Shown here: positions 27,091 to 47,926 of the stretch, in pieces
Layout of the letters: each line of letters begins with the position of its first letter
How positions within the stretch are numbered: the stretch's first letter is position 1
Origin: Candidatus Berkelbacteria bacterium
GTDB taxonomy: Bacteria; Patescibacteriota; UBA1384; XYA2-FULL-43-10; CAINNR01
Direction: 5' to 3'
DNA: 61,050 nt
NCBI GenBank assembly: GCA_026397235.1
Contig: JAPLVG010000023.1
Span: 1-61,050 of the forward strand
Program-made: the position numbers and the translations under genes
Notes under the pieces: model-generated
Told to the model about the DNA's origin: nothing
Database searches by the model: none
Seen by the model: the letters and a program-made list of their open reading frames with translations, nothing else

Positions 27091-27134
27091 AGTTAGTAAG
27101 TTAGTAAAGTTCGTAATTTGGTAGGAGATATTGC

Positions 27135-27602: not shown

Positions 27603-27612
27603 ATAGTCTCTC

Positions 27613-27650
27613 AAAAAAAACTGGCCGAACTAATTAAGCCAGTTTTTTTT
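27613..27650 (+). terminator. Strong hairpin with flanking A8/T8 runs after rplO
   Basis: AAAAAAAACTGGC (27613-27625) / GCCAGTTTTTTTT (27638-27650). Confidence 0.75.
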
Positions 27651-27721
27651 GTACCTTGTTATTGAGTTTAGCGCACAAAAAGCGTACACTTTAGGCATAA
27701 ACTTGTCGATGCAAGATAATT

Positions 27722-28114
27722 ATGACTGATGAAATATTGAGCAAAATTGCAATCTTCCAGAAAAAAGAAATTCGCCGAGTCATTTTCAAAAATGAATGGT
27801 GGTTTGTGGTTGAAGACGTTGTTTTGGCATTGATCAACTCAAATGATCCAAAACAGTATATACAGCGTATGAAACTACGAGATTCCGAGTTAAGAAAAGG
27901 GTGGGTACAAATTGTACAGACCCTCCCGGTAGATACTCTTGGCGGTAAGCAGAAAATGGTTTGCGCCACAGCTGAGGGTTTGTTTCGCATTATTCAGTCT
28001 ATATCCTCGCCCAAAGCAGAACCGTTCAAACGCTGGCTAGCCAAAGTTGGTTACAAGCCTTCTCTCCCTGTCATTGCGAGCCATTTGTTTTTGTGTGAAG
28101 GCGCGGCAATCTAA
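27722..28114 (+). pseudogene. Bro-N-domain (antirepressor/DinD-like) gene, C-terminally truncated by the GIY-YIG element
   Basis: IAIFQKKEIRRVIFKNEWWFVVEDVVLAL...GGKQKMVCATAEGLFRII...AEPFKRWLAKV resembles Bro-N; the last ~20 codons (KPSLPVIASHLFLCEGAAI*) read into the GTCATTGCGAG repeat. Confidence 0.6.
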
Positions 28115-28441
28115 TAAATGAAATTAAAACGATATTATGTCTATTTGATGGTGAATCCTGCAAACTCTGTAATCTATGCCGGAGTCACAAACAATTTAAT
28201 TCGACGTGTGTTTGAACACAAGTGTAAGTTTATTGAGGGATTTACCAAAAAATACAATACAACAAAAGTAGTATATTGGGAGTGTTTTGATGATGTGAAA
28301 TCAGCCATAAATCGCGAGAAACAAATTAAATCAGGTTCCAGGCAAAAGAAAATTGATTTGATAATAAAACATAATCCCAAATTTAATGATTTGTACGGGG
28401 ATCTTTTGTAAGATTGCTTCGTCGTTCCTTCTCGCAATGAC
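28070..28441 (+). mobile_element. GTCAT...ATGAC hairpin element carrying a GIY-YIG ORF in its apical loop (filled copy)
   Basis: Outer arms GTCATTGCGAG (28070-28080) / CTCGCAATGAC (28431-28441); inner arms GGCAATCT (~28106-28113) / AGATTGC (28411-28417). The ORF lies exactly between the inner arms; an empty copy is at 56452-56555. Confidence 0.7.
28118..28411 (+). CDS. Small GIY-YIG nuclease-family protein
   Basis: 97 aa; YYVYLMV...VIYAGVTNNLIRRVFEHK...REKQIK matches the GIY-(x10)-YIG, R, E pattern. Confidence 0.85.
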   Translation: MKLKRYYVYLMVNPANSVIYAGVTNNLIRRVFEHKCKFIEGFTKKYNTTKVVYWECFDDVKSAINREKQIKSGSRQKKIDLIIKHNPKFNDLYGDLL

Positions 28442-28443
28442 GG

Positions 28444-28566
28444 AACCACGCAAAGGCCGGTGGGAATATTGCCGGTGGGGCGAGAAAAAATCTGGAAAAA
28501 CGGCTAGGCAGATCTGTCATCTCAAAACAAAATTATTTACCAAAGAAGAATAAATCAATTGAATAA
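28444..28566 (+). pseudogene. Possible orphan C-terminal fragment of the disrupted Bro-N/DinD-like gene
   Basis: Frame gives NHAKAGGNIAGGARKNLEKRLGRSVISKQNYLPKKNKSIE*, which I recall as typical of the C-terminus of this family; no start codon. Confidence 0.3.
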
Positions 28567-28570
28567 TCTT

Positions 28571-29305
28571 ATGAAAAACATTTTTTTAAAATCAATTTTG
28601 GGTGTCTTACTGTTTGTAGCATTTGTCGTGCTGGCTTTAGTTGCAATCTCCGGCGACAAAAAAGCAAAAGCTGTCGATGTTTGTTGGCAAAAAAACAATG
28701 GGCGCTACTCTTTTGGTGACTCAAACAAGGACTACGAAACAAAGTCATTGTGCCAATCAAACTATGTCTTGTACATGGAAATCGTAAATGGCACTGGTCC
28801 TCAATGCGTATCTGATCTTACCCAAAATGGAACATTTTCTGGCAGAGGGCAGACGTTCAGCACCAAGGAACAATGCAGAGCCTCTTTGCTTGCAACTTAC
28901 AATATGTCGGAATCCCGACCAACCTCGACTTCAAATGCCCCAACCTGCAATTATTCAAATGAATCAGCAAGTTGGAGGAGTAATTTACAAACAAAAATTA
29001 CCGCTTTGTATGCAGAGCTTTTAAAAAGAACTACCAACTCAAATGATTTTGCATATTGGCAGTCGGCGATGCCTTTTCGCAGTTGTGGCCAAACAATTGA
29101 CGAAACAAGCATTCGAGCATTTATTCAGACATCCGAAGAGTACAAGAATCTTCAAGCCGCGAGTACAACTGTTCAACCAGCTATTACCAACCAAAGTACC
29201 GAAGTTCAACTTGTAACCAAAACCGAAGCTCCAAAAACTGGTTTTCTTAACTATATTAAATCTATTCCTTCTCGCATCGCCAACTTTTTTAAGAGATTAT
29301 TTTAA
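28571..29305 (+). CDS. Secreted/membrane-anchored Cys-repeat protein with DUF4214-like C-terminal segment
   Basis: ATG at 28571 (ORF track TTG at 28559); N-terminal hydrophobic segment; two Cys-bounded ~28-aa repeats; LYAELLKRTTNSNDFAYWQS...IRAFIQTSEEY resembles DUF4214. Confidence 0.55.
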   Translation: MKNIFLKSILGVLLFVAFVVLALVAISGDKKAKAVDVCWQKNNGRYSFGDSNKDYETKSLCQSNYVLYMEIVNGTGPQCVSDLTQNGTFSGRGQTFSTKEQCRASLLATYNMSESRPTSTSNAPTCNYSNESASWRSNLQTKITALYAELLKRTTNSNDFAYWQSAMPFRSCGQTIDETSIRAFIQTSEEYKNLQAASTTVQPAITNQSTEVQLVTKTEAPKTGFLNYIKSIPSRIANFFKRLF

Positions 29306-29341
29306 TAACTTATGAAAAATATTTTTCTAACATCAAATGTA

Positions 29342-29409
29342 ACAAAAACACGTGAATAGCACCAGAAAACAGTAATCTATTCACTACTTATTGACAAAAA
29401 CACGTGAAT
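29342..29409 (+). promoter_or_regulatory. Two identical 16-nt direct repeats 52 nt apart
   Basis: ACAAAAACACGTGAAT at 29342-29357 and 29394-29409 (contains the CACGTG palindrome). Confidence 0.6.
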
Positions 29410-29487
29410 GTAGGCATTTTGTTAAACCGAGTGTATTATCATTTTCACCTTCTGTGAGGGCTAAGGCACTCTAGTATGTGGCAATTA

Positions 29488-29556
29488 TGCATAGTTTCAT
29501 GATATTTTGCATAGTTTATATAAATACTTGCATAGTTTAGCAAATAATGCTAAGAT
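29488..29556 (+). promoter_or_regulatory. Three TGCATAGTTT direct repeats overlapping a putative promoter of the HTH-ATPase gene
   Basis: TGCATAGTTT at 29488, 29508, 29529 (20-21-nt period); TTGCAT (29528-29533), 17-nt spacer, TAAGAT (29551-29556). Confidence 0.6.
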
Positions 29557-29574
29557 ATTGTAAGAGGAAATTAA

Positions 29575-30294
29575 ATGGAAGAAAAATTATTAACAATTGC
29601 TGAGGCAGCCGAAATACTCGGCGTTTCAATTGACACGCTCCGTCGCTGGGATAGTAGTGGGAAATTAGTTCCGATTAAAAAAGATGGCGGCGTACATCGG
29701 TTTTACCGAGAAAAAGATCTTGAAATATTTTCAAGTGATATTGTTGAACTTGCTCATGATTGGGCGAGAGATGGTTCAGAATTGCCTTCTATTTTCTACT
29801 GCGGCAATAGTGCAGTTTTTCAAGCCAGATTGTCAAAACTAGAGCATATCTTAATGAATCAACCGGGTTTCGAGAGGTTATTTTCGGTTATTATTGCCAT
29901 TGCCGGCGAGATCGGAAATAATTCTTTTGATCACAATCTGGGAAAGTGGCCGGATATACCGGGTATCTTTTTTGGATATGATATTAATAAAAAGCAAATT
30001 GTTCTTGCTGATCGTGGACTTGGTATTTTGGAGACACTTCGTCAAGTACGACCCAGCCTAAAAAATCATACCGAAGCTTTGATGGTGGCTTTTACTGAGA
30101 TTCTGTCTGGTCGTTCTCCAGAAAAGCGCGGAAATGGCTTAAAGTTCGTTCGAGAAGTTACAACAACTCAGCCAATTGACCTGTTTTTTGAAAGTGGCGA
30201 CGGTGAAGTTCGCATCAAGGCCCCAGATAAGGAGTTTCGTCTGACGCGCGGCCAAGAAATACTTCGCGGTTGCTTCGTCATAATTCAATTTTAA
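29575..30294 (+). CDS. MerR/excisionase-type HTH fused to a GHKL (histidine-kinase-like) ATPase domain
   Basis: 239 aa; LTIAEAAEILGVSIDTLRRWDSSGKL (HTH); N-box EIGNNSFDHN, G1 DRGLGI, G2 GNGLKF. Confidence 0.8.
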   Translation: MEEKLLTIAEAAEILGVSIDTLRRWDSSGKLVPIKKDGGVHRFYREKDLEIFSSDIVELAHDWARDGSELPSIFYCGNSAVFQARLSKLEHILMNQPGFERLFSVIIAIAGEIGNNSFDHNLGKWPDIPGIFFGYDINKKQIVLADRGLGILETLRQVRPSLKNHTEALMVAFTEILSGRSPEKRGNGLKFVREVTTTQPIDLFFESGDGEVRIKAPDKEFRLTRGQEILRGCFVIIQF

Positions 30295-30328
30295 AATTAG
30301 TTATAAAATAATAACGAAGGACAAATCT

Positions 30329-30619
30329 ATGCGTATTGAATTAAATAAATTTGGCACAACGCTTATTTCGCGTCAAGCAGGGTCTGAGGCTTTTAAGGCT
30401 TTTCAGTCAACATTGCAAGACATGAAGCCGGGTGAAAATCTTGAAATTGATTTTTCCGGTGTTTTAACATTTTCTCCATCTTGGGGAGATGAATTTGTGA
30501 GTCCTTTGTTTGATCAACTTGGAGACAACTTGGTCTTGTTAGCGAGCGACAATATGTCAGTTCAAGCAACATTAAAGCTATTGCAGGAAATCAAAAAACA
30601 ATCTTTTGTTATTCACTGA
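30329..30619 (+). CDS. STAS-like (DUF4325-type) small protein
   Basis: 96 aa; LEIDFSGVLTFSPSWGDEFVSPL matches my recollection of the DUF4325 STAS-like core. Confidence 0.65.
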   Translation: MRIELNKFGTTLISRQAGSEAFKAFQSTLQDMKPGENLEIDFSGVLTFSPSWGDEFVSPLFDQLGDNLVLLASDNMSVQATLKLLQEIKKQSFVIH

Positions 30620-30822
30620 TAATGATAAATAATAGAAACTTTCCGCTCCACGAATTTTTAATGCGGCGCTTCGCCAATCAATTCCTGCTTTCCGCGAACG
30701 CGGTGTCTGGAGAATAGCCAGTAACTATAACAAGATACAATAGTTTCGCCGAAGGCGAACACAGGGCGTTAAAAGCTCTGCTTATAAAATGAAAATTACA
30801 AAATAATTAACGTGGAATAATT

Positions 30823-31362
30823 ATGAAAATTACTTACTTTGTTCATGGCACAACAACTGACAATGAAAAGCACATTTCTTCCGGTTGGAAAGATGTAGAG
30901 CTTTCTGACCTTGGAATTCAACAATCAAAAGACTTGAAAAGTCAGGTAGATGTTAAGAAGTTCGATGTAGTTTTCTGTTCCGATTTAAAACGAGCGGTTG
31001 ATTCGACTAAGCTAACCTTTGAAGGAGTTGTACCAATTAAAATCGATCCACGATTACGTGAATGTAATTATGGCGACTTTAATGCTAACCCATCAGAAAT
31101 AGTTGAGCCAATGCAGGAAGAGAATATTGAAAAACCATTTCCAAATGGCGAAAGTTATGAAGATGTTAAAAAACGCATTAGTGAATTTCTGGAAGACATC
31201 AAAAAAGAGTATGGTAACAAACACATAGCAATTGTTGCTCACAAGGCTTCACAGCTAGCGCTGGATGTTATCATTAAAGGTATGACTTGGGACGAAGCCT
31301 TTGCCACAGATTGGCGTAAAGTTGGGAAATGGCAACCCGGTTGGGAATACGAGGTGAAATGA
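30823..31362 (+). CDS. Histidine phosphatase (phosphoglycerate-mutase-like) family protein
   Basis: 179 aa; ITYFVHGTTTDNE (RHG motif with V in place of R), DLKRA, VAHKASQ. Confidence 0.8.
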   Translation: MKITYFVHGTTTDNEKHISSGWKDVELSDLGIQQSKDLKSQVDVKKFDVVFCSDLKRAVDSTKLTFEGVVPIKIDPRLRECNYGDFNANPSEIVEPMQEENIEKPFPNGESYEDVKKRISEFLEDIKKEYGNKHIAIVAHKASQLALDVIIKGMTWDEAFATDWRKVGKWQPGWEYEVK

Positions 31363-31790
31363 TGGAAATTGTAATTGTCGACAATCCAAACCAATTAGAC
31401 ATCTTGTCGGACAAGACCGCGAATTTTGGTGAATTAAACTTTAAATTTTCACCAAAGTATTTAGCTGAACTAAAATCGCTTGTAAATAAATCACTGCAGT
31501 ACATTGCAACTATCGATGGAAATTTTGCTGGATATTTGGCGGCAAAAGAATCCGATATTTGGCCAGATAGTTTTCAGATTGTTGAATTATTTGTCGACCC
31601 ATCAGCCCAAAGAAAAGGGGTGGCATCTTCGTTGCTAGGAAAATTATTCACCGATGCCCATTGTCAGCTTGTTGTCGAAACTGAAAAAGAAAATCTACCT
31701 GCGATAACACTGTATAAAAAGCATGGTTTTGAAGAAGTCGAAAATGAAAATTGGGATGACATAACCTTGGTGAGAAATGACAATAAATAA
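31359..31790 (+). CDS. GNAT-family N-acetyltransferase
   Basis: ATG at 31359 overlaps the upstream stop (ATGA); VDPSAQRKGVASSLLGKL (motif A), LYKKHGFEEV. Confidence 0.8.
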   Translation: MMEIVIVDNPNQLDILSDKTANFGELNFKFSPKYLAELKSLVNKSLQYIATIDGNFAGYLAAKESDIWPDSFQIVELFVDPSAQRKGVASSLLGKLFTDAHCQLVVETEKENLPAITLYKKHGFEEVENENWDDITLVRNDNK

Positions 31791-32178
31791 AGCCGGTGCA
31801 ATTGTTAGAAAAATAGAAAACGGCGAAGTATATATTTTGCTTTTGCATTTGATTAAACACGACTTTTGGTCGTTCCCAAAAGGGCATATTGAAGAAGGTG
31901 AATCCGCAGAAGACACTGCAAAGCGCGAAATTCTTGAGGAAACAGGGCTTGTAATTAATATCACGAAACCGCTCGGAATCGCGAAGTATAAAGATATTGA
32001 TGGCAATGAAGTTAACTTAAATCTTTTCTTGGCCGATATTGAAAGTGGTGAGTTAGTTGAAGAAGAAGGCCACGAGTTAGTTTGGCTAACAGTTGATGAA
32101 GCAACAGAAAAACTAACCTACCCCGAACTCCGCGAATTTCTTTCTGATAAAAAATACGAAATAATTAACCTGGAATAA
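31777..32178 (+). CDS. NUDIX hydrolase
   Basis: 133 aa; Nudix box GHIEEGESAEDTAKREILEETGL. Confidence 0.9.
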   Translation: MTINKAGAIVRKIENGEVYILLLHLIKHDFWSFPKGHIEEGESAEDTAKREILEETGLVINITKPLGIAKYKDIDGNEVNLNLFLADIESGELVEEEGHELVWLTVDEATEKLTYPELREFLSDKKYEIINLE

Positions 32179-32180
32179 TT

Positions 32181-33080
32181 ATGCCAATTTTTAAAATCAA
32201 ACAAAATGCAGTTAATCAGTTAATGCTTGATAAAAATTATTTTAACAATGAATTCGAACTTAGGGATTTTTTTGCCGCCAATCTTGAACAGTTGCTAGGA
32301 TTAAGATTTTTAGAATCAGAATACCCAACTATAGACGGAAGAATAGATACTTTAGCCATAGACGAAACAAACTCCCCAGTTATTATTGAATACAAATGGG
32401 GACAAGATAATGCCATTTTTGTGCAGGGCTTGTTCTATCTAGACTGGTTGAAGAAAAATAAAAGACATTTTGATTTATTAGTAGCTAAAAAACTTGGTGA
32501 AGACGTAACTGTTAATTGGGCTAGTCCTCGAGTTATATTAATTGCATAAGGCTTTGATAACAGGACTATTACTGCAGTTCAGCAAGTTGATAGTGTTGAA
32601 CTTATAAAATATTCGCCTTATGAACAAGAAATTATCTACCTGGAAAATGTTTATGTGCCAAATAAGTCTAACCGCATTAAACAAAGTAATGATACAGATA
32701 GTTCGACAACTGAGGGGGCTGAGTTAGAAGAAACACATGATATTAGCTATCACTTGACTCGTCATAATTCGAATGCTGTCATAACCAAAGAGTTTCATAT
32801 GCTTAGAGAAAAAATACAGAATCTCCCTGGAGTAGAAGAAATAGTGAATTTTAAGACCGGAATTACTTATAGAACGACGAAAAGTTTTGCTAGGTTTGAA
32901 TTTGGAAGGACATTCATGAACGTCTTGGTTCGAGAACCGAAGTATAATGATCCTACACACTTGGTTCGTGATATCACTTCGCATATGTGGGGGTACAAAG
33001 GTAAAATCAAAGTTACATCTTCTGAAAATACTGACGCTGTTTTTGATATAATCAAACAGTCGTATGAAGAAACCTTGTGA
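32181..33080 (+). pseudogene. PD-(D/E)xK nuclease-like + DUF5655-like protein interrupted by one in-frame TAA
   Basis: ORFs 32181-32549 and 32655-33080 are in the same frame, and the frame is open between them except TAA at 32547-32549; paralogue of 33192-34115 (IDTLAIDETNSPVIIEYK vs IDSVALDESTNSVVLIEYK). Confidence 0.6.
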
Positions 33081-33191
33081 TGCTAACAGCTAATTTTACT
33101 AAGGTTAAATAACTGTTTACAGAAAAAGAAAACTCTCGCAATCTCAAGAGCGAAGTGCTATACTTTAGGCGTAAAATTAAGTGAAATAATT

Positions 33192-34115
33192 ATGGCAATT
33201 TTTAAAATTAATGATCAAAAGCTTGAAGCGATTTCTGAAAAGAAAATTGATTTAGAGCGCGATATTCAGAAACTCACCGAGCAAAACCTTGAAAATGTTT
33301 TTGGATTAAAATTTGTATGTGGTGCAAGCAACCAAGAATTTTGTGTTCGCGCAAATGAACAAGATTTCTACATTGATTCTGTAGCCCTAGATGAATCGAC
33401 TAACTCTGTTGTTCTTATTGAATACAAAAAGGATCGCAGTTTTTCAGTTATTGACCAGGGTTTTGCTTATCTATCTGCGATGCTGAACAATAAAGCTGAA
33501 TTTGTTTTGGAAATAAATGAGCGGCTTAAAAAAAATCTATCAAAAAAAGATATCGATTGGGAGCAATCTAGAATTATTTTTATTTCAAACGAATTCACAA
33601 ATTATCAAAAGAACGCCATCAACTTTAAGGATCTGCCAATGTTTTTGTACGAAGTAAAAATATATGACAACCTTATTGATTACAATCCAATCAAACCCTT
33701 CAAAACCAGTGAATCAATTAACAAATTTATCAAAGATAAAAAAGTCAGGGAAGTAGTAAATGAAGTCAAAGTTTATTCGATTGAAGATCATTTATCGAAA
33801 TCATTACCTGAAATTGTCGAAATCTATAACACGCTTAGCCAAAAAATTCATTCACTTGATACCAGAATTTTAGAGAAACCAGTAAGGGGCTATATCGGTT
33901 TTAAAATTCGCTACCATAACTTCTGTTCTCTCGCGGTACAAAAAAATAAAATCGGGGTTTATTTACGCGCCCAGAAAATATCTGATGGAAATAAACTTCT
34001 TAAAAGGATACCAAGTCAGAGTTCTTTGTGGCGATGTGATATAACTTCGCTTGATCAAATTGATGAGGTGTTTTTACTTATCCAACAATCATATAATCAG
34101 GCACCAGATAAATAA
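33192..34115 (+). CDS. PD-(D/E)xK nuclease-like N-domain + DUF5655-like C-domain protein (intact paralogue)
   Basis: 307 aa; D...E-x-K signature in YIDSVALDESTNSVVLIEYK; C-terminal YIGFKIRYHNFCSLAV... Confidence 0.65.
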   Translation: MAIFKINDQKLEAISEKKIDLERDIQKLTEQNLENVFGLKFVCGASNQEFCVRANEQDFYIDSVALDESTNSVVLIEYKKDRSFSVIDQGFAYLSAMLNNKAEFVLEINERLKKNLSKKDIDWEQSRIIFISNEFTNYQKNAINFKDLPMFLYEVKIYDNLIDYNPIKPFKTSESINKFIKDKKVREVVNEVKVYSIEDHLSKSLPEIVEIYNTLSQKIHSLDTRILEKPVRGYIGFKIRYHNFCSLAVQKNKIGVYLRAQKISDGNKLLKRIPSQSSLWRCDITSLDQIDEVFLLIQQSYNQAPDK

Positions 34116-34166
34116 AACAATAATGTCCGAAGCATTTTCACGAGTAGTAATTTGATAAATAAATAT

Positions 34167-35303: not shown

Positions 35304-35304
35304 T

Positions 35305-36474: not shown

Positions 36475-36479
36475 CTCAC

Positions 36480-37175: not shown

Positions 37176-37244
37176 CAAAACCATAACGTTTAATAGAAGA
37201 TGAAGCTGTTATAAATTGCAGGATCTAAGATCAATATTTGCCAA

Positions 37245-38252: not shown

Positions 38253-38500
38253 CGTTAATACGGCAACAAAATTCTTAATAAAGATAGGGATCCAGCGCCA
38301 GTTGTAAATAATTTGGACAATAATTATGCAAAAACTAATTCAAGAATTTTTGAGAGTTAGGGATTTGCCCTACAGAATTCCACTTTCGTACGAAGATATC
38401 GAACATTATCAAAAAATTATTGTCGTCCTAGTCGAAACCAATCTGATTATGAAAGAAATCGACGAGGTTGTCGTTTTGTAAATAATGGTTACAGTTCTAT

Positions 38501-38529
38501 TGACAACTATATTTACATATATTATACTC
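38501..38529 (+). promoter_or_regulatory. Consensus sigma70-like promoter for the DUF2188 gene / TA module
   Basis: TTGACA (38501-38506), 17-nt spacer, TATACT (38524-38529); AAAGGAG SD before ATG 38556. Confidence 0.65.
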
Positions 38530-38555
38530 AGGGTAATTAACAAAGGAGTGTAATT

Positions 38556-38789
38556 ATGTCCGGTAAACAAATCTGGGTTTCGCCGGCTGATGACGGCTGG
38601 CGCGTTCACAAACCAGGAACAGTGAAAGATTCTGCTCGTACTGATACTAAAGCAGAAGCACTAGAAATCGCTGAAAGGATTGCAAGGAATCAAAACTTAG
38701 ACACAAAGGTTCAGCGAGCCGATGGTAAATTGTCAGCAGAGGGGAATACATACCCTCGTTCGCGAGACAAGTTTCCGCCACGAGGTTAG
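38556..38789 (+). CDS. DUF2188-family small protein
   Basis: 77 aa; WVSPADDGWRVHKPG...TKAEALEIAERIARNQ...RADGKL pattern. Confidence 0.7.
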   Translation: MSGKQIWVSPADDGWRVHKPGTVKDSARTDTKAEALEIAERIARNQNLDTKVQRADGKLSAEGNTYPRSRDKFPPRG

Positions 38790-38829
38790 TCAGTGAAGTG
38801 AATAATATAAATTAGCAGGAGGGGCTATC

Positions 38830-39585
38830 ATGAATTATTTTAAGAAATTGTTATTGGAGAAAAAAATTTCGCACGAGAAGCTTGCGGATATTTTTGGTAT
38901 TTCTCGTCCGACAGCCGCTAAAATCGCAAACGGTGATAAAGAAATGACCATAACAGAGCTGAGAAGGTTGGCAGAGGTGCTTGGAATTTCTGTTGACGAA
39001 GTGCTGGGTGAGAAGACGTCCGAAATTGTTTTAGAGTGTCCAAAGGAGAAAGCCAAGCCAACAGAACGAATCAGTGTTCCAGCAGAAGATGCTGAAAAAT
39101 TTAAGAATGTTCTGCTTTACATTACTCAAAAAATTGGAGCTCTTCCTAATGTTGGTCAGACTGTTCTGTATAAAATTTTATATTTCTGCGACTTTGATTA
39201 TTATGAGAAATTTGAAGAGCAACTTACTGGTGCACGGTATATCAGAAATCATTATGGGCCGACTCCAGTTGCGTTTGCAAAAATCGTTAAAACTATGATA
39301 ACTGCTGGAGAAATTGAAGAAGTAAAAACCAAATATTTCAATAAGGAACAAACCAAATATATCCCTGTGATCGAGCCGAACTTATCTGTATTGTCAGGGC
39401 AAGAGCTTAAACACATTGATGAGGAAATTGAGAAATTGGGAGGAATGACTGCTACTGAATTGTCGAACTTGTCCCATAAAGATGTACCCTGGATCGTCAC
39501 AAAGGAAGGGGATGAAATTCCTTACGAAACTGCTTTTTACAGAACACCTGACACCTCGGTAAGGGATTATGATGATAGTTTATAG
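38830..39585 (+). CDS. XRE-HTH + Panacea (DUF4065) domain antitoxin-like protein
   Basis: 251 aa; HTH ISHEKLADIFGISRPTAAKIANG; LYKILYFCDFDYYEKFEEQLTGARYIRNHYGPTP resembles DUF4065/SocA. Confidence 0.75.
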   Translation: MNYFKKLLLEKKISHEKLADIFGISRPTAAKIANGDKEMTITELRRLAEVLGISVDEVLGEKTSEIVLECPKEKAKPTERISVPAEDAEKFKNVLLYITQKIGALPNVGQTVLYKILYFCDFDYYEKFEEQLTGARYIRNHYGPTPVAFAKIVKTMITAGEIEEVKTKYFNKEQTKYIPVIEPNLSVLSGQELKHIDEEIEKLGGMTATELSNLSHKDVPWIVTKEGDEIPYETAFYRTPDTSVRDYDDSL

Positions 39586-39952
39586 CAAGCATCCAAGATT
39601 CGAAAAGCAGTTGAAAAAACTTCTAAAGAAGTATAGAACCCTGGAAGACGATTTGTTGATTGCCAAAAAAGCTGTAATTGAGCTATCACATGTTAATAAA
39701 ATCGACAACAGATCAGTTGAATTAGTTCCAGGATTTGATCATCAAGAAATTCAAATTTTTAAGATTAAGAAATTTGCCTGTAAAGCACTCGTTGGCAAAG
39801 GTGTTAGGAGTGGAATCCGAATTGTTTATGCATATTTTCCCGAACAAAATCATGTTAAATATTTAGAAATCTATTACAAAGAGAAAGATAACACGGATAT
39901 GGATTATGATTTTGTCAAAAATTATGTAGCAGAAATTATGAAGAGAACATGA
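39569..39952 (+). CDS. RelE/ParE-superfamily-like toxin partner
   Basis: 127 aa; overlaps the upstream gene by 17 nt; GIRIVYAYFPEQNHVKYLEIYYKEKD resembles the RelE/ParE-fold C-terminal strands. Confidence 0.6.
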   Translation: MMIVYSKHPRFEKQLKKLLKKYRTLEDDLLIAKKAVIELSHVNKIDNRSVELVPGFDHQEIQIFKIKKFACKALVGKGVRSGIRIVYAYFPEQNHVKYLEIYYKEKDNTDMDYDFVKNYVAEIMKRT

Positions 39953-39997
39953 CCATGCAATTCGAGTCCATATTACAATAACTATTATATAGAAAAT

Positions 39998-40042
39998 ATG
40001 AGCGAATATTACAAAGCAAATCGTGATTCATTTATTAGATAA
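39998..40042 (+). pseudogene. 14-codon remnant of the 5' end of a PD-(D/E)xK (Cas4-like) gene
   Basis: MSEYYKANRDSFIR*; the first 8 codons match the intact gene at 43741 (MSEYYKANR). Confidence 0.5.
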
Positions 40043-40090
40043 TATTATGAAAGATTATAAGATTTGGACAGGTAGAGAAAGATTGATTTC

Positions 40091-40687
40091 TTGCAAACCA
40101 ACCAAAAAATAATAGCATTCAATTTTATGGAAAAGCTCTCCTGCAATCTTGATAATACTAACTGGGAGAATATTCGGGTTGGGGCTCGGAAGTATATAGC
40201 CATAATGCAGATGGTTAAGAATACGAATGTTCGAACAGACGAAAGTTTTCGTAGAGCGTTTAATGGATTTTATCGTATAAGGCAGAGATCAAAAGAGTTT
40301 TACGATTTCCTTTATGAATATCTGGAAAGAAATAAAGAAATTAATACTTCTTTCAAACAAACATTATATTCTTTCTATGAGAAGTTTCAGCGTCTTGAGC
40401 CTTCATTTTCGAGTAAGATCGTAGCGACAATCAATCCAAACTTTCCTGTTTGGGATTCGGAAGTTCTGGCTAGGTTTGGGAAGAGAACACTTGGACATAA
40501 TTTAAACAAGGATATTAGACTGAAGGAAATGGTTAAAATATACAGTGAAATATCTGATTGGTATGCCGAATTTTTAGAAACTGACCAAGCAAAAGCAATG
40601 ATTGGATTGTTTGACCAAAAGATCGGCAAGCTAGAAATTACCGACATTAAAAAAATTGATTTAATTCTCTGGCAAACTAGGTCATGA
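40091..40687 (+). CDS. Hypothetical protein (start uncertain: TTG 40091 or ATG 40127)
   Basis: 198 aa; no family recognised with confidence. Confidence 0.5.
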   Translation: MQTNQKIIAFNFMEKLSCNLDNTNWENIRVGARKYIAIMQMVKNTNVRTDESFRRAFNGFYRIRQRSKEFYDFLYEYLERNKEINTSFKQTLYSFYEKFQRLEPSFSSKIVATINPNFPVWDSEVLARFGKRTLGHNLNKDIRLKEMVKIYSEISDWYAEFLETDQAKAMIGLFDQKIGKLEITDIKKIDLILWQTRS

Positions 40688-40782
40688 ATTCTGAATTAAT
40701 CAAAAAGAAAAGAAATACTATGTATAAACTTTCACCATCAGACTTTGCTTACTTGTACAAAGATTGTAAGCTTTGCTATTAG
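40684..40782 (+). pseudogene. N-terminal fragment of a second Cas4-like/PD-(D/E)xK-family gene ending at an in-frame TAG
   Basis: MNSELIKKKRNTMYKLSPSDFAYLYKDCKLCY* ; the S..F......C..C(F/Y) pattern parallels ISRSKLENFMNCSRCFY of 43741-44514. Confidence 0.4.
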
Positions 40783-40820
40783 TTAAAAATTAAACATGAC
40801 ATCACCCGCCAAAGGATTCT

Positions 40821-40865
40821 ATTCCACTTCTATGCGGAGTTTACCCTGTGGGAAGTATAGTAGTG
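40821..40865. repeat. Left copy of a ~45-52-bp inverted repeat
   Basis: The reverse complement CACTACTATACTTCCCACAGGGTAAACTCCGCATAG... matches 42728-42763 at 33/36 positions. Confidence 0.85.
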
Positions 40866-40936
40866 AAATACTGTGTCGGAGACACAAAAAGCTGGTATGG
40901 GTGTTTATGTAAATATCAATATATGACTTATAACTT

Positions 40937-41671
40937 ATGAAACCACAATATGATCTAGAGAAAATTAAGCTTGGAATTGATGAAGGAACGTGGAAGCGCG
41001 CAGTTGCTTTGTACGAATCTAATGCGGTGGAAAACTTCCGGGTACAATTTGGTGATTTTTTCGCGAAAGTAATTGGCGGCGAACCATATAATGTTTTTGT
41101 TTCATCGAAAGTTTATGACGAGGGCAATTGTAATTGTTATCTTGGGCGAAGTGAAATTTTGTGCAAACACATGGTTGCAGTCGCTATTTACGCTGTTAAA
41201 GGTGGACGCAAATTAACCAAAGAGGAAAAGGAATTGAGCCATCAGGTTGTGTTTAGCGGATTAGTTGGTGAACTAACAGAATTAGAATTAACCAATGTTA
41301 AAACAAATATCACAGCGTCACTTAAATATATTAAGTCTTACCATGGTCCCTCTCGGAGTTGGTTTCAATATCAAAATTCACTTACCGAGGGCTGTAATCG
41401 CTTAGCAAAAATTGTTTCTGGATTGCCTATATGCCCGCACACTTCGAGCATTCTAGTTGACTTGTTATTGCGGGCTGACAAGAAATTAACAGCTAGCGGC
41501 ATAGATGATTCAGACGGAATAGTTGGGGCATTCATTGAGGCGGTAGTGTTGTTACTCATGGATTTTTCAAAGTTAGATAAGAATTGTATAAAAACATTTT
41601 CGAAGTTAGTCGGCAAGGAAACCTGTTTTGGCTGGGAGTCCCCACTTTTAGAAATATATGATTCTTTATAA
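40937..41671 (+). CDS. SWIM zinc-finger protein
   Basis: 244 aa; CNCYLGRSEILCKHMVAVAIYA (CxC...CxH SWIM signature). Confidence 0.75.
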   Translation: MKPQYDLEKIKLGIDEGTWKRAVALYESNAVENFRVQFGDFFAKVIGGEPYNVFVSSKVYDEGNCNCYLGRSEILCKHMVAVAIYAVKGGRKLTKEEKELSHQVVFSGLVGELTELELTNVKTNITASLKYIKSYHGPSRSWFQYQNSLTEGCNRLAKIVSGLPICPHTSSILVDLLLRADKKLTASGIDDSDGIVGAFIEAVVLLLMDFSKLDKNCIKTFSKLVGKETCFGWESPLLEIYDSL

Positions 41672-41690
41672 TGGTTGAGATTTGTAATAG

Positions 41691-42441
41691 ATGAAAAGAA
41701 AAAAAATAACACAGAAAGAGCGGCGCACGATTGTTGAAAGTGTTGTCGGTAATGTGCCATGGGAGCAATTTACCCCCGGAATTTATAATAATTGTGATCG
41801 TTGGTGTGAGCGGTGCAGCAAAACTGAGAAATGTTATTTATTTTTTGAAGAGAAAAAAGAAGAGAATCGACGAACAAAAAGAAAAAAAGCCAAGAGATAC
41901 CGCTGGATCACTTAAAAAAGTTGGCGAATCACTTGGGCAAGTAAAGGATTTGATTCAGAAAATTTGTGATGCTGAAGGCATTGATGTTTCCATGACGCCA
42001 GAAGAGGAAGCTGAATATGAAAGAAGAGAGAAATTAACCGATCCGCACAATGATCCGATCGCTATCAGAGCCAGTAGATTATCAAAGTCAATATATAAAT
42101 GGTTGGATTCTGTACCGTCTCTAGACATGGTGAAGTATCAAGAAGCCTACGACCAAGTTTCTTGGCATTGGTCGCTGATTGGAGTAAAAACTGCGATGGC
42201 AATCCATTGCCAAAAGGAAACAGAAATTGAAGAAGGAAGTTCAAGAAAATTTGCCTTGGATCAACAACAGAAGTACAGCTGGATGGCTTATCGCTCGACC
42301 CAGATTTGCAAAAAAGGTTTTGAATTAATGGATGGCTATGTAAAAGATTCCAGAATAAGGCCCATTATTGATGAGAGTCAGAAATTAATGGGTCTAATCG
42401 ATAAAAAATTGTTGGCAACTGATATAATAATAAAGCAATGA
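41691..42441 (+). pseudogene. Cys-rich/helical protein gene requiring a +1 frame change in an A-rich tract
   Basis: ORF 41691-41915 (CDRWCERCSKTEKC...) and ORF 41731-42441 (+1 frame) overlap; plausible coding sense switches frame between ~41845 and ~41912, where A6, A5 and A7 runs occur. Confidence 0.5.
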
Positions 42442-42555
42442 CAGCGAGAGAATTAATGAAAATTAAAGGGTTCGAATTTGACGGGTTTATACGCTAAGAA
42501 AGAGTTTTAATCTTACGGAATCCCATAACATTAAAAAACTAAACTAGGAAAAAAT

Positions 42556-42717
42556 ATGTCAGATTATTACAAAGCAAATCGAACAAAAAATATCTTTGAT
42601 CCTAAATCGGATCAGGCTTTTAAGATCTCTAGAAGCAAACTGGAAAAATGTATTGTGGTTTGTCAGGTCGGTACGGTTAAATCAGCTTTCACAATTAGTA
42701 GAATAAAAAGAGTATAG
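42556..42717 (+). pseudogene. Truncated 5' copy (~30 codons of homology) of the Cas4-like gene
   Basis: MSDYYKANRTKNIFDPKSDQAFKISRSKLEK... parallels MSEYYKANRTKNLYDPKNDQAFKISRSKLEN of 43741, then diverges and stops at 42715-42717. Confidence 0.6.
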
Positions 42718-42727
42718 AATGATACGC

Positions 42728-42779
42728 CACTACTGTACTACCCACAGGGTAAACTCCGTATAGTAATAATAGATGGAAT
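42728..42779. repeat. Right copy of the inverted repeat
   Basis: CACTACTGTACTACCCACAGGGTAAACTCCGTATAG...GGAAT; partner at 40821-40865. Confidence 0.85.
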
Positions 42780-42883
42780 GCCGTAGCTGTTCCGCTTCTT
42801 ATATGTACTTTTCTATATACAAAACCATTGAAAATAGGTTAGAATAGGTATATAATCGGTTGAATTAATATATTGGGAGAATC

Positions 42884-43078
42884 ATGACTGCAAAACAAGC
42901 AGCACAACTTATTTCAAACATCAAAGCGGCAAGAGAAACTATTTCAGAGATGACGCCCGCACAGAGAAAAAACCTCGAGAGATCGTGGGATGTTGAGCAT
43001 GCCTATTATTCCAGTTCTTTAGAGGGCAGCAATATAAGTAGAAAAGAATTTAATAAAATTGCAGAAGATGTAAAATAA
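42884..43078 (+). CDS. Fic-inhibitory antitoxin-like small protein (class I FicA/VbhA-like)
   Basis: 64 aa; contains S-x-x-x-E-G (YSSSLEGSN), the inhibitory-helix motif; directly upstream of the Fic gene. Confidence 0.6.
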   Translation: MTAKQAAQLISNIKAARETISEMTPAQRKNLERSWDVEHAYYSSSLEGSNISRKEFNKIAEDVK

Positions 43079-43084
43079 AGTCTG

Positions 43085-43738
43085 ATGATAACTCGGCCTA
43101 AAGACAATAAAGATCTGGAAAAACGAGCGGCAATCGGAGTAATCCGTGCCGCTCGTTTTGTAAGAAGATACGCGAAATCAAACAAAGTAATTGATGTCTC
43201 AACGATAAGACTTGTTCACAAAGAAATTTGGAGAGATGTTTGGCCAGAAATTGCTGGAGAATACAGGATCGAAAATCTGGAAATTTCGGGATCAAGTTTG
43301 CAGCTACCACATTTTAAAGATGTGCCTAAATTAATGGAGAAGATGGACATTGAGTTTGCTAAAAAAATTAGCAAAACAGGTGATGAATGTAGGGGTGTGA
43401 TCGCAGACTTCGGTGAAATAAATGACGAATTGATAAATTGTATTGATAAAGTTGTTTCTTTGTCTACCTGGGTTCACCATAAGATAACTTTTATTCATCC
43501 CTTTCGAGAAGGAAATGGAAGAACGGCTAGATTGATAGCAAATCTAATTTTAGAACGATATGGTCTGGTCGGTATTTCAGTAAAGGTCGAGCGTGAAAAC
43601 AAGGATGCTTATATTCAGGCACTATCTCAAATTGACAAGATGGCTGACTATGAGCCATTAAAAAATTTAATTTACAAAGGGTTAGCTGAGAGGTATGAAG
43701 GAGTCGCAATGAAATATTATCCATTTGCCAAAGGTTAA
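43085..43738 (+). CDS. Fic-domain protein (AMPylase-type toxin)
   Basis: 217 aa; HPFREGNGRTARL active-site motif. Confidence 0.9.
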   Translation: MITRPKDNKDLEKRAAIGVIRAARFVRRYAKSNKVIDVSTIRLVHKEIWRDVWPEIAGEYRIENLEISGSSLQLPHFKDVPKLMEKMDIEFAKKISKTGDECRGVIADFGEINDELINCIDKVVSLSTWVHHKITFIHPFREGNGRTARLIANLILERYGLVGISVKVERENKDAYIQALSQIDKMADYEPLKNLIYKGLAERYEGVAMKYYPFAKG

Positions 43739-43740
43739 AA

Positions 43741-44514
43741 ATGAGTGAATACTACAAAGCAAATAGGACAAAGAATTTATACGATCCGAAGAATGATCAG
43801 GCTTTTAAAATCTCCAGAAGCAAACTAGAGAATTTTATGAACTGTTCGCGGTGCTTTTACATTGACAGAAGATTAGGGGTTGGCACACCACCAGGGTTTC
43901 CATTTAACTTAAATTCGGCAGTCGATACCTTGCTGAAAAAAGAGTTTGATATTTTCCGCAAAGAAGGCAAAAAACATCCGCTAATTGAAAAATACGGTGT
44001 AGATGCTCGGCCGGTCAGCCATGAAGAATTGGACAAATGGCGTGAGAATTTTGTTGGTATTCAATATTTACACCCAGAAACCAACTTTCTAATTACCGGT
44101 GCCATTGATGACTTGTGGATTAATTCTAAGGGTGAATACATTGTTGTTGATTATAAATCCACATCCAAAAATGGTGACATTGTCGCACTAGATCAAGCCT
44201 GGCAGAGTGGCTACAAAAGGCAGATGGAAATTTACCAGTGGTTGCTACGGAAAAATGGTTTAAAAGTATCAGATACGGGTTACTTTGTTTACTGCAATGG
44301 TGTTACCGATTGCGACAAGTTTGATAACAAGCTGGATTTTGAAATATCCCTAATTGCTTATGATGGTGACGATTCCTGGGTTGAGGATACTATTATAGAA
44401 GCTCACAAATGCCTTTGTTCGGACAAAATCCCTAGCGCCAATCCGGAATGCGATTACTGCAACTATGTATCTGCCGTTTCTGTCATCTCCAATACCAACT
44501 CCACAACCAAATGA
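43741..44514 (+). CDS. PD-(D/E)xK nuclease with Cas4-like four-Cys arrangement
   Basis: 257 aa; N-terminal CSRCFY, GAIDDLWINSKGEYIVVDYKS (D...D-x-K), QMEIYQWLL, C-terminal C...CDYC. Confidence 0.8.
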   Translation: MSEYYKANRTKNLYDPKNDQAFKISRSKLENFMNCSRCFYIDRRLGVGTPPGFPFNLNSAVDTLLKKEFDIFRKEGKKHPLIEKYGVDARPVSHEELDKWRENFVGIQYLHPETNFLITGAIDDLWINSKGEYIVVDYKSTSKNGDIVALDQAWQSGYKRQMEIYQWLLRKNGLKVSDTGYFVYCNGVTDCDKFDNKLDFEISLIAYDGDDSWVEDTIIEAHKCLCSDKIPSANPECDYCNYVSAVSVISNTNSTTK

Positions 44515-44522
44515 TTATGCCG

Positions 44523-44549
44523 CACTACTATACTTCGAAGTGTAGTAGT
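44523..44549. repeat. Near-perfect palindrome sharing the CACTACTATACTTC word with the inverted repeats
   Basis: CACTACTATACTTC|GAAGTGTAGTAGT; the first 14 nt are identical to the reverse complement of 40852-40865. Confidence 0.8.
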
Positions 44550-44566
44550 AGAATATAGTTTAGAAA

Positions 44567-44848
44567 ATGTCAAAAAAGGGAATTGATTCCGAATCAAAAA
44601 TATTGCTAATAGAATCGCTGAAGAAATTGAAAAGCGATGAGTTTATTGATTTTCTTGAATCATTAATGTCGTCAACCGAAATTAAAAACATTTCCCGGCG
44701 GACAATGGCGGCAAAGCTTTTACTGGAATATAATACATATGAGGATGTTGAGTTGTTGATGGGCATGTCGCCCGGTACCATCAACAAAATCCATTTCAAA
44801 ACCAAAGGAAGCCCGGCATTTAGAAAACTATTTACCAAAAAGGATTAA
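44567..44848 (+). CDS. TrpR/YerC-YecD-like small DNA-binding protein
   Basis: 93 aa; ...EFIDFLESLMSSTEIKNISRRTMAAKLLLE...GMSPGTINKI resembles the Trp-repressor-like family. Confidence 0.65.
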   Translation: MSKKGIDSESKILLIESLKKLKSDEFIDFLESLMSSTEIKNISRRTMAAKLLLEYNTYEDVELLMGMSPGTINKIHFKTKGSPAFRKLFTKKD

Positions 44849-44888
44849 TCTGACACTTCGATGCTTCGAATTATAGAAATGGAAAAAC

Positions 44889-45794
44889 ATGAATAATTTA
44901 CTTTCTGACAAAATAATTGTTGATGTTGACACGGGCATTGATGATGCGCTAGCGATTTTATTGTTGGCGAACAAAGCGTCCGACAGAATACTTTGGTTTA
45001 CAACTTGTGGAGGTAATGTTGGCGTTTCACAGACAACTAAAAACACTTTGGCGGTCTTGGAATTGATTGGTTCGAATGTTCCTGTTTACAAAGGCTCGGA
45101 TAAAAATCTTGCTGGAGAAGGTTATATTTTCGCTTACGATTATCACGGCAGAAATGGAATTTGTAATGTCGAGTTAACAAATAGTCGGACTGTGTCAGGT
45201 GATGCGATGAGCTTTATGAAAAAAAGTATTGATGAAAACGGCGGCCAGATTTCGTTTCTTTGTTTAGCTCCTCCAACCAATCTGGCAAAGACTCTCAAAG
45301 AATCCCCAGAGCTAGTGAAAAAAATAAATTCAGTTGTACTAATGGGAGGAGCGTTGAAAGTTTCTGGCAATCAAACAGAAAAAGCCGAGTTCAATTTTTT
45401 TCAAGATCCCTTAGCCGTGGACATTATTTTAAAAAGTGTTAAAAATGTTTATATTGTTCCCCTTGATATTACAAACAGATGTTTAATAGCCGAGCAAGAT
45501 ATTAATGACATCTCCTCAAATTCGGCCCAGGTCAAGTTCTTTAAGCAAGCAATAGAAAATTGGTATGAGTTTTTTGGTAGACCAAAAAATCGAAGTTTCG
45601 AATTATATGATCCGTTAGCTGCCGCGGCAGTTTGTTCTGATGTGCTGAAGTTTGAACGGGAAAGAATTGATGTCGTAATGTCTGGTCAAAATCGCGGTGC
45701 TCTTATTTCCGGCGGTAAAACTGAGGTTAGCCTCGCTACAGACTGCGATGAGATAGAATTTATGGAAATGTTTTACGGTGCTTTCAAAAAGTGA
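44889..45794 (+). CDS. Inosine/uridine-preferring nucleoside hydrolase family protein
   Basis: 301 aa; N-terminal IIVDVDTGIDDALAILLL (DxDxxxDD) signature. Confidence 0.9.
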   Translation: MNNLLSDKIIVDVDTGIDDALAILLLANKASDRILWFTTCGGNVGVSQTTKNTLAVLELIGSNVPVYKGSDKNLAGEGYIFAYDYHGRNGICNVELTNSRTVSGDAMSFMKKSIDENGGQISFLCLAPPTNLAKTLKESPELVKKINSVVLMGGALKVSGNQTEKAEFNFFQDPLAVDIILKSVKNVYIVPLDITNRCLIAEQDINDISSNSAQVKFFKQAIENWYEFFGRPKNRSFELYDPLAAAAVCSDVLKFERERIDVVMSGQNRGALISGGKTEVSLATDCDEIEFMEMFYGAFKK

Positions 45795-45888
45795 ATTGGC
45801 TCATGTATACGATGGTGAAATGGAATATTGAGATTATAATCACTTTGTGCTAGTATTAAAGCAGTCTAAACAACGAATTTTTTAGTTA

Positions 45889-47163: not shown

Positions 47164-47252
47164 CACTACTAATATAATAATTTCTCTAATATACCAATAA
47201 ATCCCATTCGTATATTCGGTAAATTCGTAAATTAGTAGTAAGTGAGGTGATT

Positions 47253-47882: not shown

Positions 47883-47899
47883 CACGGATTGGAACGGAT
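47870..47899 (+). repeat. Heptamer array, forward arm only, spanning the adk stop codon
   Basis: CACGGAT 47870, CACGGAT 47883, AACGGAT 47893. Confidence 0.85.
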
Positions 47900-47926
47900 A
47901 TTAAAGAATATTAATAAGATTGAATA

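Follow-up and report, generated by a model that had tools for sequence, protein, structure and literature searches.

Why should a ribosomal protein operon carry a large island of accessory genes between two of its members, and by what route did these genes arrive there? The question is raised by the window analysed in this study, which is the whole stretch of 61,050 nucleotides (nt) read from the forward strand of contig JAPLVG010000023.1 (assembly GCA_026397235.1) of a Candidatus Berkelbacteria bacterium, a member of the candidate phyla radiation (CPR). Few gene orders are as conserved as that of the S10-spc-alpha cluster; in the window this cluster is interrupted between rplO, which encodes ribosomal protein L15, and secY. 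A preliminary description of the sequence had placed the end of rplO at 27602, the start of secY at 45889 and a hairpin with a T-run directly after rplO, and all of this proved correct by translation, folding and Pfam searches. It had also counted about 30 open reading frames (ORFs) or fragments in the 18.3-kb interval; about 29 were found in our count, all on the plus strand. We believe that the site is very likely a hotspot, flanked by core genes and free of an integrase, which sits in the spacer between a putative terminator and a putative promoter and which exchanges its content, a small unit at a time, through recombination with incoming DNA.

The insertion site and its occupancy in relatives

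Loci around SecY homologues (160 loci, taken from species-representative genomes and JGI metagenomes, with L15 located by an iterated profile) were surveyed for the distance between the two genes. Among the 145 CPR loci with both genes, the rplO–secY gap was 300 nt or less in 135 (93%), 300–1000 nt in four and more than 1 kb in six, and nine further loci had no L15 despite at least 600 nt available upstream of secY. Contiguity is thus the ordinary state, as had been presumed from the canonical spc operon, and it is also the state of the nearest relatives with an empty site, whose SecY is 83–87% identical to that of the window and whose gaps are 50 nt (P0008), 119 nt (L111) and 182 nt (L106); the L100 group belongs here as well.

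The four lineages represented by the window, L089, L096 and L090 share 90–91% SecY identity, and each has different content between rplO and secY. In L089, rplO and secY lie 9.7 kb apart on one contig and enclose genes for SelR, a LexA-S24-Dam fusion, peptidase S51, His_Phos_1, ThsB_TIR, an N6_N4 methylase, MjaV and a different PD-(D/E)XK nuclease. The L096 site holds at least 10 kb with SAM-methyltransferase, BNR-like, fn3, rubrerythrin and GATase genes, and the L090 site, at which seven contigs break, holds the apparent C-terminus of an rve-type transposase. Only near-identical strains (99.6–100% DNA identity) have this same island. No more than two island proteins have homologues anywhere in the surveyed loci, and the only pieces common to the window and the 90–91% lineages are a His_Phos_1 cassette and one PD-(D/E)XK stub. 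These results indicate that the island is accessory and not ancestral, as the preliminary description had supposed; identical content was not seen in the relatives at 90–91% SecY identity.

Independent and smaller insertions at the same point were also found in more distant CPR lineages. L173, whose SecY is 63–64% identical, has a 6.7-kb insertion with a heliorhodopsin gene at 8400–9182; L159 carries an MNT/HEPN-like pair and L097 a HicA-like ORF (both assignments read from sequence), and in other distant lineages single membrane proteins are inserted. The rplO–secY junction is therefore a recurrent insertion point, which has grown into a large and fast-changing island in one Berkelbacteria clade. 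The locus shows what is expected of a hotspot, namely conserved flanks that are adjacent when the site is empty, content that varies among close relatives, and matches to defence genes. L047 was considered as a further island because it has no L15 within 10 kb of secY; its upstream ORFs resemble housekeeping genes in their N-termini, and it was treated as a rearrangement.

The edges of the insertion point are two conserved elements. The hairpin after rplO (minimum free energy −18.5 kcal/mol, z −4.85) is conserved in four lineages (the window, L089, L111 and L106), among which one pair has changed in a compensatory manner, and the promoter-like block before secY is kept in the window, L096, L090 and the empty-site L111 and partly in L089. 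At the empty site of L111, the order is the rplO stop codon, the A-run/CTGG.../T-run hairpin, about 15 nt, TTGAGA-17 nt-TGcTAGTAT...AACGAATTTTTT, and the secY ATG; both elements are thus present at empty as well as occupied sites. Judging from this arrangement, transcription probably ends after rplO in this clade and secY probably has a promoter of its own, whether or not an island is present. The preliminary description had suggested that the island genes may be read through from ribosomal promoters. Simple read-through now appears unlikely, because the conserved hairpin and T-run precede the island, secY keeps its own promoter-like element, and both elements also stand at empty sites. The plus orientation of all island genes, from which that suggestion came, was borne out, also by gene calls on independent Logan contigs of the island; it is not specific to the island, since nearly all genes of the window are on the plus strand, and the cumulative GC skew climbs across the whole window.

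We propose that the spc cluster of the Berkelbacteria clade was already split transcriptionally at rplO/secY, by a terminator-like hairpin, about 15 nt and a promoter-like element that would drive secY. Insertion into this short spacer would harm neither core gene, and for this reason the site would tolerate cargo. As a separate observation, L009 (about 1100–1360), L102, L103 and L104, which are relatives at 83% SecY identity, have GC-rich tandem units (CCATGCCTACCGGCAGGCAGG) in variable number in the rplO 3' end and the spacer of an otherwise AT-rich genome; the L009 stretch is partly masked as N.

Exchange of cassettes and its possible routes

The exchange of one cassette was recent relative to the core genes around it. 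The His_Phos_1 gene with its 30-nt leader is 90% identical in nucleotides to the copy in L089, whereas the flanking core genes are 74–78% identical, and the synonymous divergence (dS) between the window and L089 is 0.47 for His_Phos_1 against 1.3–1.8 for rplO, secY and map. This indicates that the unit moved between the two lineages, or into both, long after their split. In both the window and L089, a NUDIX gene has left its final nine codons as a remnant immediately upstream of His_Phos_1. In addition, the PD-(D/E)XK type of the second stub described below sits directly before secY in L089, so the two islands share some ancestry, which has been largely overwritten since.

We believed that content is gained, replaced and eroded in units of one to three genes. 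Incoming DNA would recombine while anchored in conserved sequence, either secY with its promoter region or the PD-(D/E)XK gene, and would be joined imprecisely on the other side. At such joints, a truncated recipient gene would persist as a 5' stub and a donor gene as a 3' remnant. Anchoring on one side would also account for the finding that most remnants at the joints are 5' ends of co-oriented genes. The scars present at the joints are three PD-(D/E)XK 5' stubs, a Bro-N 5' fragment and the NUDIX 3' remnant.

The stubs belong to a Cas4-like PD-(D/E)XK nuclease gene, which is intact near the right end of the island. The 5' end of the intact gene is the sequence that is repeated in stubs 1 and 3, and cargo of 0.6–1.8 kb separates the stubs. 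Stub 2 has 77% amino acid (aa) identity to the L089 gene over 35 codons; the span of 40684–40782 given for it earlier is corrected to 40720–40824. The layout of stub, cargo and intact gene was found in three unrelated CPR genomes, namely the window with its three stubs, L185 and the L186 group. In L185, the stub (7073–7104, 94% nucleotide identity over 32 nt) is fused to a 302-aa cargo ORF and restriction–modification (RM) genes lie upstream; in the L186 group, a 28-codon stub (4751–4852) is followed by a pair of genes for a MerR-type helix-turn-helix (HTH) protein and a DUF4325 protein and then by the intact nuclease gene. The breakpoints fall after codon 9 (window stub 1 and L185) or after codons 28–30 (window stub 3 and L186), with different cargo each time. 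A contig from the sample of P0008 has a homologous nuclease at another locus, preceded by Fic, methylase, DpnI and toxin–antitoxin (TA) genes. When the first 35 residues were searched library-wide, 29 representatives were found, mostly ORFs of 34–193 aa that start like the PD-(D/E)XK gene and then diverge or stop, and some of these short ORFs may be sequencing artefacts. The exceptions were an 852-aa repetitive protein, with no aligned stretch, and a 319-aa near-full-length homologue.

Several points weigh against recombination of small units at a terminator–promoter spacer. All five stubs are 100 nt or shorter and have two breakpoints, whereas random illegitimate joints in a 770-nt gene would differ; this clustering is poorly explained by imprecise recombination, and either longer stubs are selected against or a process of greater specificity may be at work. 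The evidence for the recombination route consists of the scars, and the relatives sampled are metagenome contigs and not complete genomes. A consensus promoter and terminator scan of the island was uninformative, with counts no higher than in shuffled sequence, and it did not list the rplO hairpin, whose loop is longer than 8 nt. Most PADLOC matches in the island are to PDC candidate families, which are defined by association. The L096 and L173 variants contain little recognisable defence, and for this reason we regard the site as a general accessory hotspot and not as a dedicated defence locus.

The recurrent breakpoints could be explained if cassettes were captured site-specifically at the 5' end of the PD-(D/E)XK gene, in an integron-like or attachment-site-like array that is served by a recombinase in trans or involves the nuclease itself, and if the island were large mainly because such an array landed at rplO/secY. 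We considered this unlikely, though an alternative to be taken seriously. It is favoured by the layout shared by the window, L185 and the L186 group, by the two recurring breakpoints with different cargo, and by the many short ORFs in public data that begin like the nuclease gene and then diverge. In all five contexts with upstream annotation, the nuclease is immediately preceded by defence or TA genes, and the nuclease family is 70–88% identical across CPR phyla whose SecY is only about 50% identical. Against it, no recombinase was found in or beside any array, the cargo side of the joints has no conserved sequence, and the stop codon of the cargo abuts or overlaps the start codon of the nuclease. 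There are two breakpoints and not one, two homologues on viral contigs have no stub, at other joints of the island the remnants come from unrelated genes (Bro-N, NUDIX), as imprecise recombination would have it, and the sample comprises five loci with DNA. In its fullest form, the first 30 or so codons of the gene would be a docking site across CPR phyla for one- or two-gene defence and TA cassettes, a 5' copy would be left each time, and an integrase-free array, possibly dependent on the nuclease, would have made the rplO/secY spacer an 18-kb island; we regard this proposal as doubtful.

Much less probable is that a single integrative element (a prophage or an integrative mobilisable element) was inserted once and site-specifically, then lost its integrase and has decayed to the present island. 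Some phage-associated families are present (the Bro-N/Ant fragment, DUF2188 and the PHROG match of a 127-aa protein), several pseudogenes lie in the island, and its GC content of 36.7% is about 4 points below that of the flanks (41.1% and 39.9%). However, no integrase or transposase was found in Pfam scans of all plus-strand ORFs or in NCBIfam and PHROG scans of the uncharacterised ORFs, and the same databases gave no structural, replication or transfer genes. No tRNA was detected in the window and no Rfam match in the island, so the earlier remark that integrase, transposase and tRNA genes are missing at the borders stood. Att-like border repeats were likewise not seen, since the longest word shared by the borders is 9 nt, which was equalled or exceeded in 110 of 500 shuffles. 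Megablast of the island against phage and plasmid collections and tblastn of the nuclease against phages gave no match. Three relatives have unrelated content at the same spot, and the shared pieces are shared gene by gene at differing divergence and not as one block.

The assembly is supported by contigs from other sequencing runs. The Logan contig L176 is 100% identical to window 27552–34207 (6,656 nt), which covers the rplO end, the hairpin and the island start, and the Logan contigs L001–L006 carry the right part of the island together with secY, adk and map; L001 matches window 35869–54282 at 99.6%, and L002 also matches the window at 99.6%. Although the source is a metagenome-assembled genome, contigs of relatives often end near the site and L176 extends just 51 nt into rplO, it is scarcely credible that the island is an assembly or binning chimera of unrelated contigs joined at rplO and at secY, because both junctions, which the preliminary description had marked for checking, are reproduced by independent assemblies (L176 on the left, L001–L006 on the right), because in L089, which comes from a different study, a single contig spans rplO, another insert of 9.7 kb and secY, and because the stretch outside L176 and L001 falls within a single methylase ORF that is intact and matched by Pfam over its full length.

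Relation to known systems and significance

Integron arrays consist of co-oriented, promoter-poor cassettes of one or two genes beside a fixed anchor gene. The island likewise consists of small co-oriented cassettes next to an anchor gene; it differs from integrons in that neither IntI nor another recombinase was found with Pfam and in that the unit repeated, 27–100 nt long, is a protein-coding gene's 5' end. No attC-like sites were seen in the aligned joint sequences, for which neither a dedicated attC model nor a systematic search was used. In tandem islands at tRNA, tmRNA or protein-gene attachment sites, integration duplicates one end of the target gene, and each partial copy marks a past insertion. 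The intact PD-(D/E)XK gene is similarly preceded by partial copies of its own end; unlike in those islands, the cargo units are 0.6–1.8 kb long, there is no integrase, the breakpoints are two, and a gene for a Cas4-like nuclease is the target. Homology-facilitated illegitimate recombination in naturally transformable bacteria was reportedly described by de Vries and Wackernagel in 2002 and by Prudhomme et al. in 2002. It has a homology anchor at one end and an imprecise joint at the other, as we propose here, and it predicts truncated recipient genes and gene-by-gene mosaicism; it is not known from CPR bacteria, and alone it leaves the recurrent breakpoints unexplained.

One study reports that competence and pilus genes are prevalent in Patescibacteria (PMC12455944). 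Like the genomic islands of that study, for which uptake by competence and pili was proposed, the island is horizontally acquired and includes an RM system; those islands were predicted by composition-based tools on concatenated contigs, and secY and hotspots are unmentioned in its text. Two further papers document core-flanked defence hotspots in the Escherichia coli pan-genome (PMC10121019) and in Pseudomonas aeruginosa (PMC10250203). As in those hotspots, the present site is fixed between core genes, its content varies among close relatives, and RM, TA and candidate defence genes are stacked in it; no mobility genes were found in the window island. In contrast to the hotspots described there, this island lies inside the S10-spc-alpha cluster of a reduced CPR genome, its units of one to three genes are turned over with stubs left at the joints, and some variants have no recognisable defence. 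No previous description of an island lying between rplO and secY turned up in our searches of the literature. The type of hotspot is thus already known, and its location is unusual and practically useful.

The S10-spc-alpha cluster serves as a fixed syntenic marker for the phylogeny and binning of uncultivated bacteria. With up to 18 kb of swappable genes inside it, this block can break, and this accounts for the contigs of related populations that stop a short way upstream of secY. CPR bacteria are reported to be mostly without CRISPR (PMC4742961). They are also poorly covered by defence catalogues, and the L15–SecY interval offers an easily located hotspot from which their defence and TA candidates can be harvested. 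The arrangement of terminator, spacer and promoter would be a simple and testable reason why insertions are tolerated at some positions within essential operons. If the stubs reflect a specific process, this would be an undescribed way to build gene-cassette arrays in genomes with few classical mobile elements.

Gene content and neighbouring features

Table 1. Positions in the window of the insertion site, its core flanks and the features of the island, with the evidence for each.
Feature	Position	Strand	Evidence
rplO (ribosomal protein L15), left core flank	27135..27602	+	Translation; jackhmmer L15 profile across 145 loci
Terminator-like hairpin, left edge of insertion site	27613..27650	+	A8-CTGGC-12 nt-GCCAG-T8, 11 bases past rplO end
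Island proper, ~18.2 kb	27651..45827	+	Similarity to relatives ends ~27650, returns at 45824-45828
Truncated Bro-N/anti-repressor-like gene	27722..28114	+	Pfam Bro-N 1e-15; PHROG Ant families; N-terminal 40% remains
Small GIY-YIG gene (28118-28411) within inverted repeats	28070..28441	+	Pfam GIY-YIG 1e-14
244-aa protein, N-terminal hydrophobic segment	28571..29305	+	Gene call; no family match
MerR/BldC-type HTH protein (239 aa) and DUF4325 STAS-like protein (96 aa)	29575..30619	+	Pfam
NUDIX 3' remnant ENYKIINVE*	30791..30820	+	Direct repeat with intact NUDIX 3' end; translation
Histidine phosphatase (His_Phos_1)	30823-31362	+	Pfam 3e-31
GNAT	31329-31790	+	Pfam 1e-12
NUDIX	31777-32178	+	Pfam 4e-18; PADLOC PDC-S07
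Decayed PDC-S18 nuclease gene copy, two ORFs	32181..33080	+	PADLOC PDC-S18 positions 1-124, 165-301
Intact PDC-S18 candidate defence protein	33192..34115	+	PADLOC 1.2e-83 full length; Pfam DUF5655 9e-9
EcoRI-family N6-adenine methyltransferase	34152-35303	+	Pfam EcoRI_methylase 8e-131; PADLOC MTase_II 3e-116 full length
DUF262(GmrSD_N)-HNH endonuclease	35305-36474	+	GmrSD_N 3e-20, HNH 6e-7; PADLOC REase_II 4e-82 full length
231-aa ORF (no match) and 335-aa PDC-S42-like ORF, downstream of RM pair	36480..38252	+	PADLOC PDC-S42 4e-16
DUF2188 protein (PDC-S16)	38556..38789	+	Pfam 4.5e-13; PADLOC 6e-18
HTH and SocA/Panacea antitoxin (251 aa), overlapping 127-aa putative toxin	38830..39952	+	SocA_Panacea 9e-19; HTH_3 3e-11
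Stub 1, first 9 codons MSEYYKANR	39998..40042	+	Repeat; tblastn; alignment to intact gene
198-aa cargo ORF, no family match	40091..40687	+	Pfam, PADLOC, NCBIfam, PHROG scans
Stub 2, L089-type PD-(D/E)XK 5' end, internal stop codon	40720..40824	+	88% nt identity to L089 9165-9261
Inverted repeat 36 nt, left arm	40830..40865		92% complementary to right arm
SWIM-finger ORF (244 aa) and adjoining 236-aa ORF	40937..42441	+	Pfam SWIM 6e-4; PADLOC PDC-S62 3e-11
Stub 3, first 30 codons, then unrelated sequence	42556..42717	+	87% aa identity to intact gene
Inverted repeat 36 nt, right arm	42728..42763		Pair brackets SWIM ORF, 236-aa ORF, stub 3
Fic module, split by one in-frame stop	42884..43738	+	Pfam Fic 1.5e-14; PADLOC PDC-S04 6.5e-25; SoFic 2.7e-14
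Intact Cas4-like PD-(D/E)XK nuclease gene	43741..44514	+	Pfam PDDEXK_1 1.3e-12; PADLOC Cas4 models
YerC/YecD TrpR-like protein	44567-44848	+	Pfam, NCBIfam
Inosine-uridine nucleoside hydrolase	44889-45794	+	Pfam, NCBIfam
Promoter-like element (putative promoter), right edge of insertion site	45828..45856	+	TTGAGA, 17 nt, TGcTAGTAT upstream of secY
secY, right core flank	45889..47163	+	Pfam SecY 1e-100

The present cargo (Table 1) appears to be a stack of independent modules, namely a type II RM system, the PDC-S18 nuclease, a putative Panacea-type TA pair, a split Fic module, the Cas4-like nuclease and nucleotide-handling enzymes. The nucleases, single methylase, TA-type pairs and HTH proteins named in the preliminary description were all recovered in hidden Markov model scans. 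PADLOC models were matched by 12 of the 29 island ORFs, including the complete type II RM pair, a count obtained without a scan of the flanking genes as control; RM genes and a TIR protein are present in the L089 island as well. A defence role of the PDC-type genes may be supposed from these matches. Histidine phosphatase, GNAT, NUDIX and nucleoside hydrolase, which together make up about a quarter of the cargo, are metabolic and not defence genes, and the YerC/TrpR-like protein, whose homologues in relatives lie about 4 kb downstream of secY, is likewise counted as accessory. Five of the six decayed fragments reported earlier were verified (27722–28114, 32181–33080, 39998–40042, 40684–40782 and 42556–42717). 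The sixth, 28444–28566, was rejected: it has no detectable homology at the protein level, and its only match is one of 25 nt to the 3' end of the TrpR-like gene.

The clearest system is the methyltransferase and endonuclease, whose genes lie 1 nt apart and which are predicted to form a type II RM pair. The 231-aa and 335-aa ORFs downstream of it match no Pfam, NCBIfam or PHROG family. The intact PDC-S18 protein combines a NucS/HSDR_N-like N-terminus with DUF5655, and its decayed copy was recognised by tblastn (2.5e-16). The 127-aa partner of the Panacea antitoxin has weak similarity to HigB-2 (E about 0.1) and matches a PHROG of unknown function. In the Fic module, the HxFx(D/E)GNGRxxR active site and the (S/T)xxxE(G/N) inhibitory motif are both present across two ORFs in the same frame with one stop between them, the active site as HPFREGNGRTAR in the 217-aa Fic ORF and the inhibitory motif as SSSLEG in a 64-aa ORF.

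The PDC-S62 match in the SWIM region covers positions 9–103 of a 566-position profile, and the SWIM ORF and the 236-aa ORF are possibly one disrupted PDC-S62-like gene. An inverted repeat such as the 36-nt pair around them is not expected by chance, and one copy was found in the L096 island (2540–2588). The pair was rejected as the ends of a mobile element, since no target-site duplication was seen and folding was no better than in shuffled sequence. A scan of viral contigs with the 17-nt core of the repeat gave eight matches, none with flanking similarity, and these were attributed to chance.

In the left part of the island, the Bro-N fragment matches PADLOC PDC-S13 (4e-38, positions 5–113 of 286), and a GIY-YIG element adjoins its truncation point. 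The GIY-YIG gene is bracketed by the nested inverted repeats GTCATTGCGAG/CTCGCAATGAC and GCAATCT/AGATTGC, and the 32-nt tail of the element also occurs in L010. A solo pair of the GTCATTGCGAG inverted-repeat motif at 56452–56462 and 56545–56555, with arms 93 nt apart and no gene inside, is possibly a remnant or a miniature form of this element. A possible 8-codon copy of the start of the 244-aa gene at 29312 was too short and AT-rich to trust.

The MerR-HTH/DUF4325 pair has homologues of 63–90% identity and constant lengths in unrelated neighbourhoods across CPR phyla. In L186 (4969–6001), it stands immediately before the PD-(D/E)XK gene, with an overlap between the stop codon of DUF4325 and the start codon of the nuclease, and the pair of the window is 63–65% identical to this cargo of the L186 group. 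In L198 (10001–11043), it lies inside a glycosyltransferase cluster at 90% identity, and for this reason it seems to behave as a mobile two-gene unit. The pair is a candidate regulatory or defence module. The C-terminal domain of the 239-aa protein was taken by eye for a GHKL ATPase, with the STAS-like partner in mind, and this impression was dropped, as the AlphaFold pLDDT was 56 and Foldseek and a PDB sequence search matched only the HTH. Of the MADS models mad1–mad8, only mad1/MAD1 was matched, by the HTH of the same protein and below the NCBIfam cut-off.

Judging from ORF translations, the plus strand of the window carries rpoB, rpoC, rpsL, rpsG, fusA, tuf and the S10/spc genes to rplO, then the island, and then secY, adk, map, a second interruption and rpsM to rpsI. 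The window L15 has 81% aa identity to the 3' part of the L15 of L089, and an exact-protein lookup for L15 gave no match; the window SecY matches the NCBI Candidatus Berkelbacteria protein P0001 at 100%. The gene rpmD (L30) is absent between rpsE and rplO (26374–27602), and absence of L30 is reported for CPR genomes. Ribosomal protein S5 (rpsE) has a long, lysine- and alanine-rich C-terminal extension. About 1.06 kb separates rpsG from fusA (13157–14220), in what appears to be a second foreign insertion, in the str operon; it holds a 244-aa ORF (13213–13947, GC about 0.50 against a background of 0.40) followed by its own hairpin and T-run, and a search of this spacer against Rfam gave nothing significant. 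The second interruption of the super-operon, between map and rpsM (48702–56550, about 7.8 kb), has an ankyrin-repeat protein and a DEAD-box helicase on the minus strand, together with two small ORFs, two membrane-like ORFs and an ORF of 349 aa; its content is partly common to L089 and L090 and differs in P0008.

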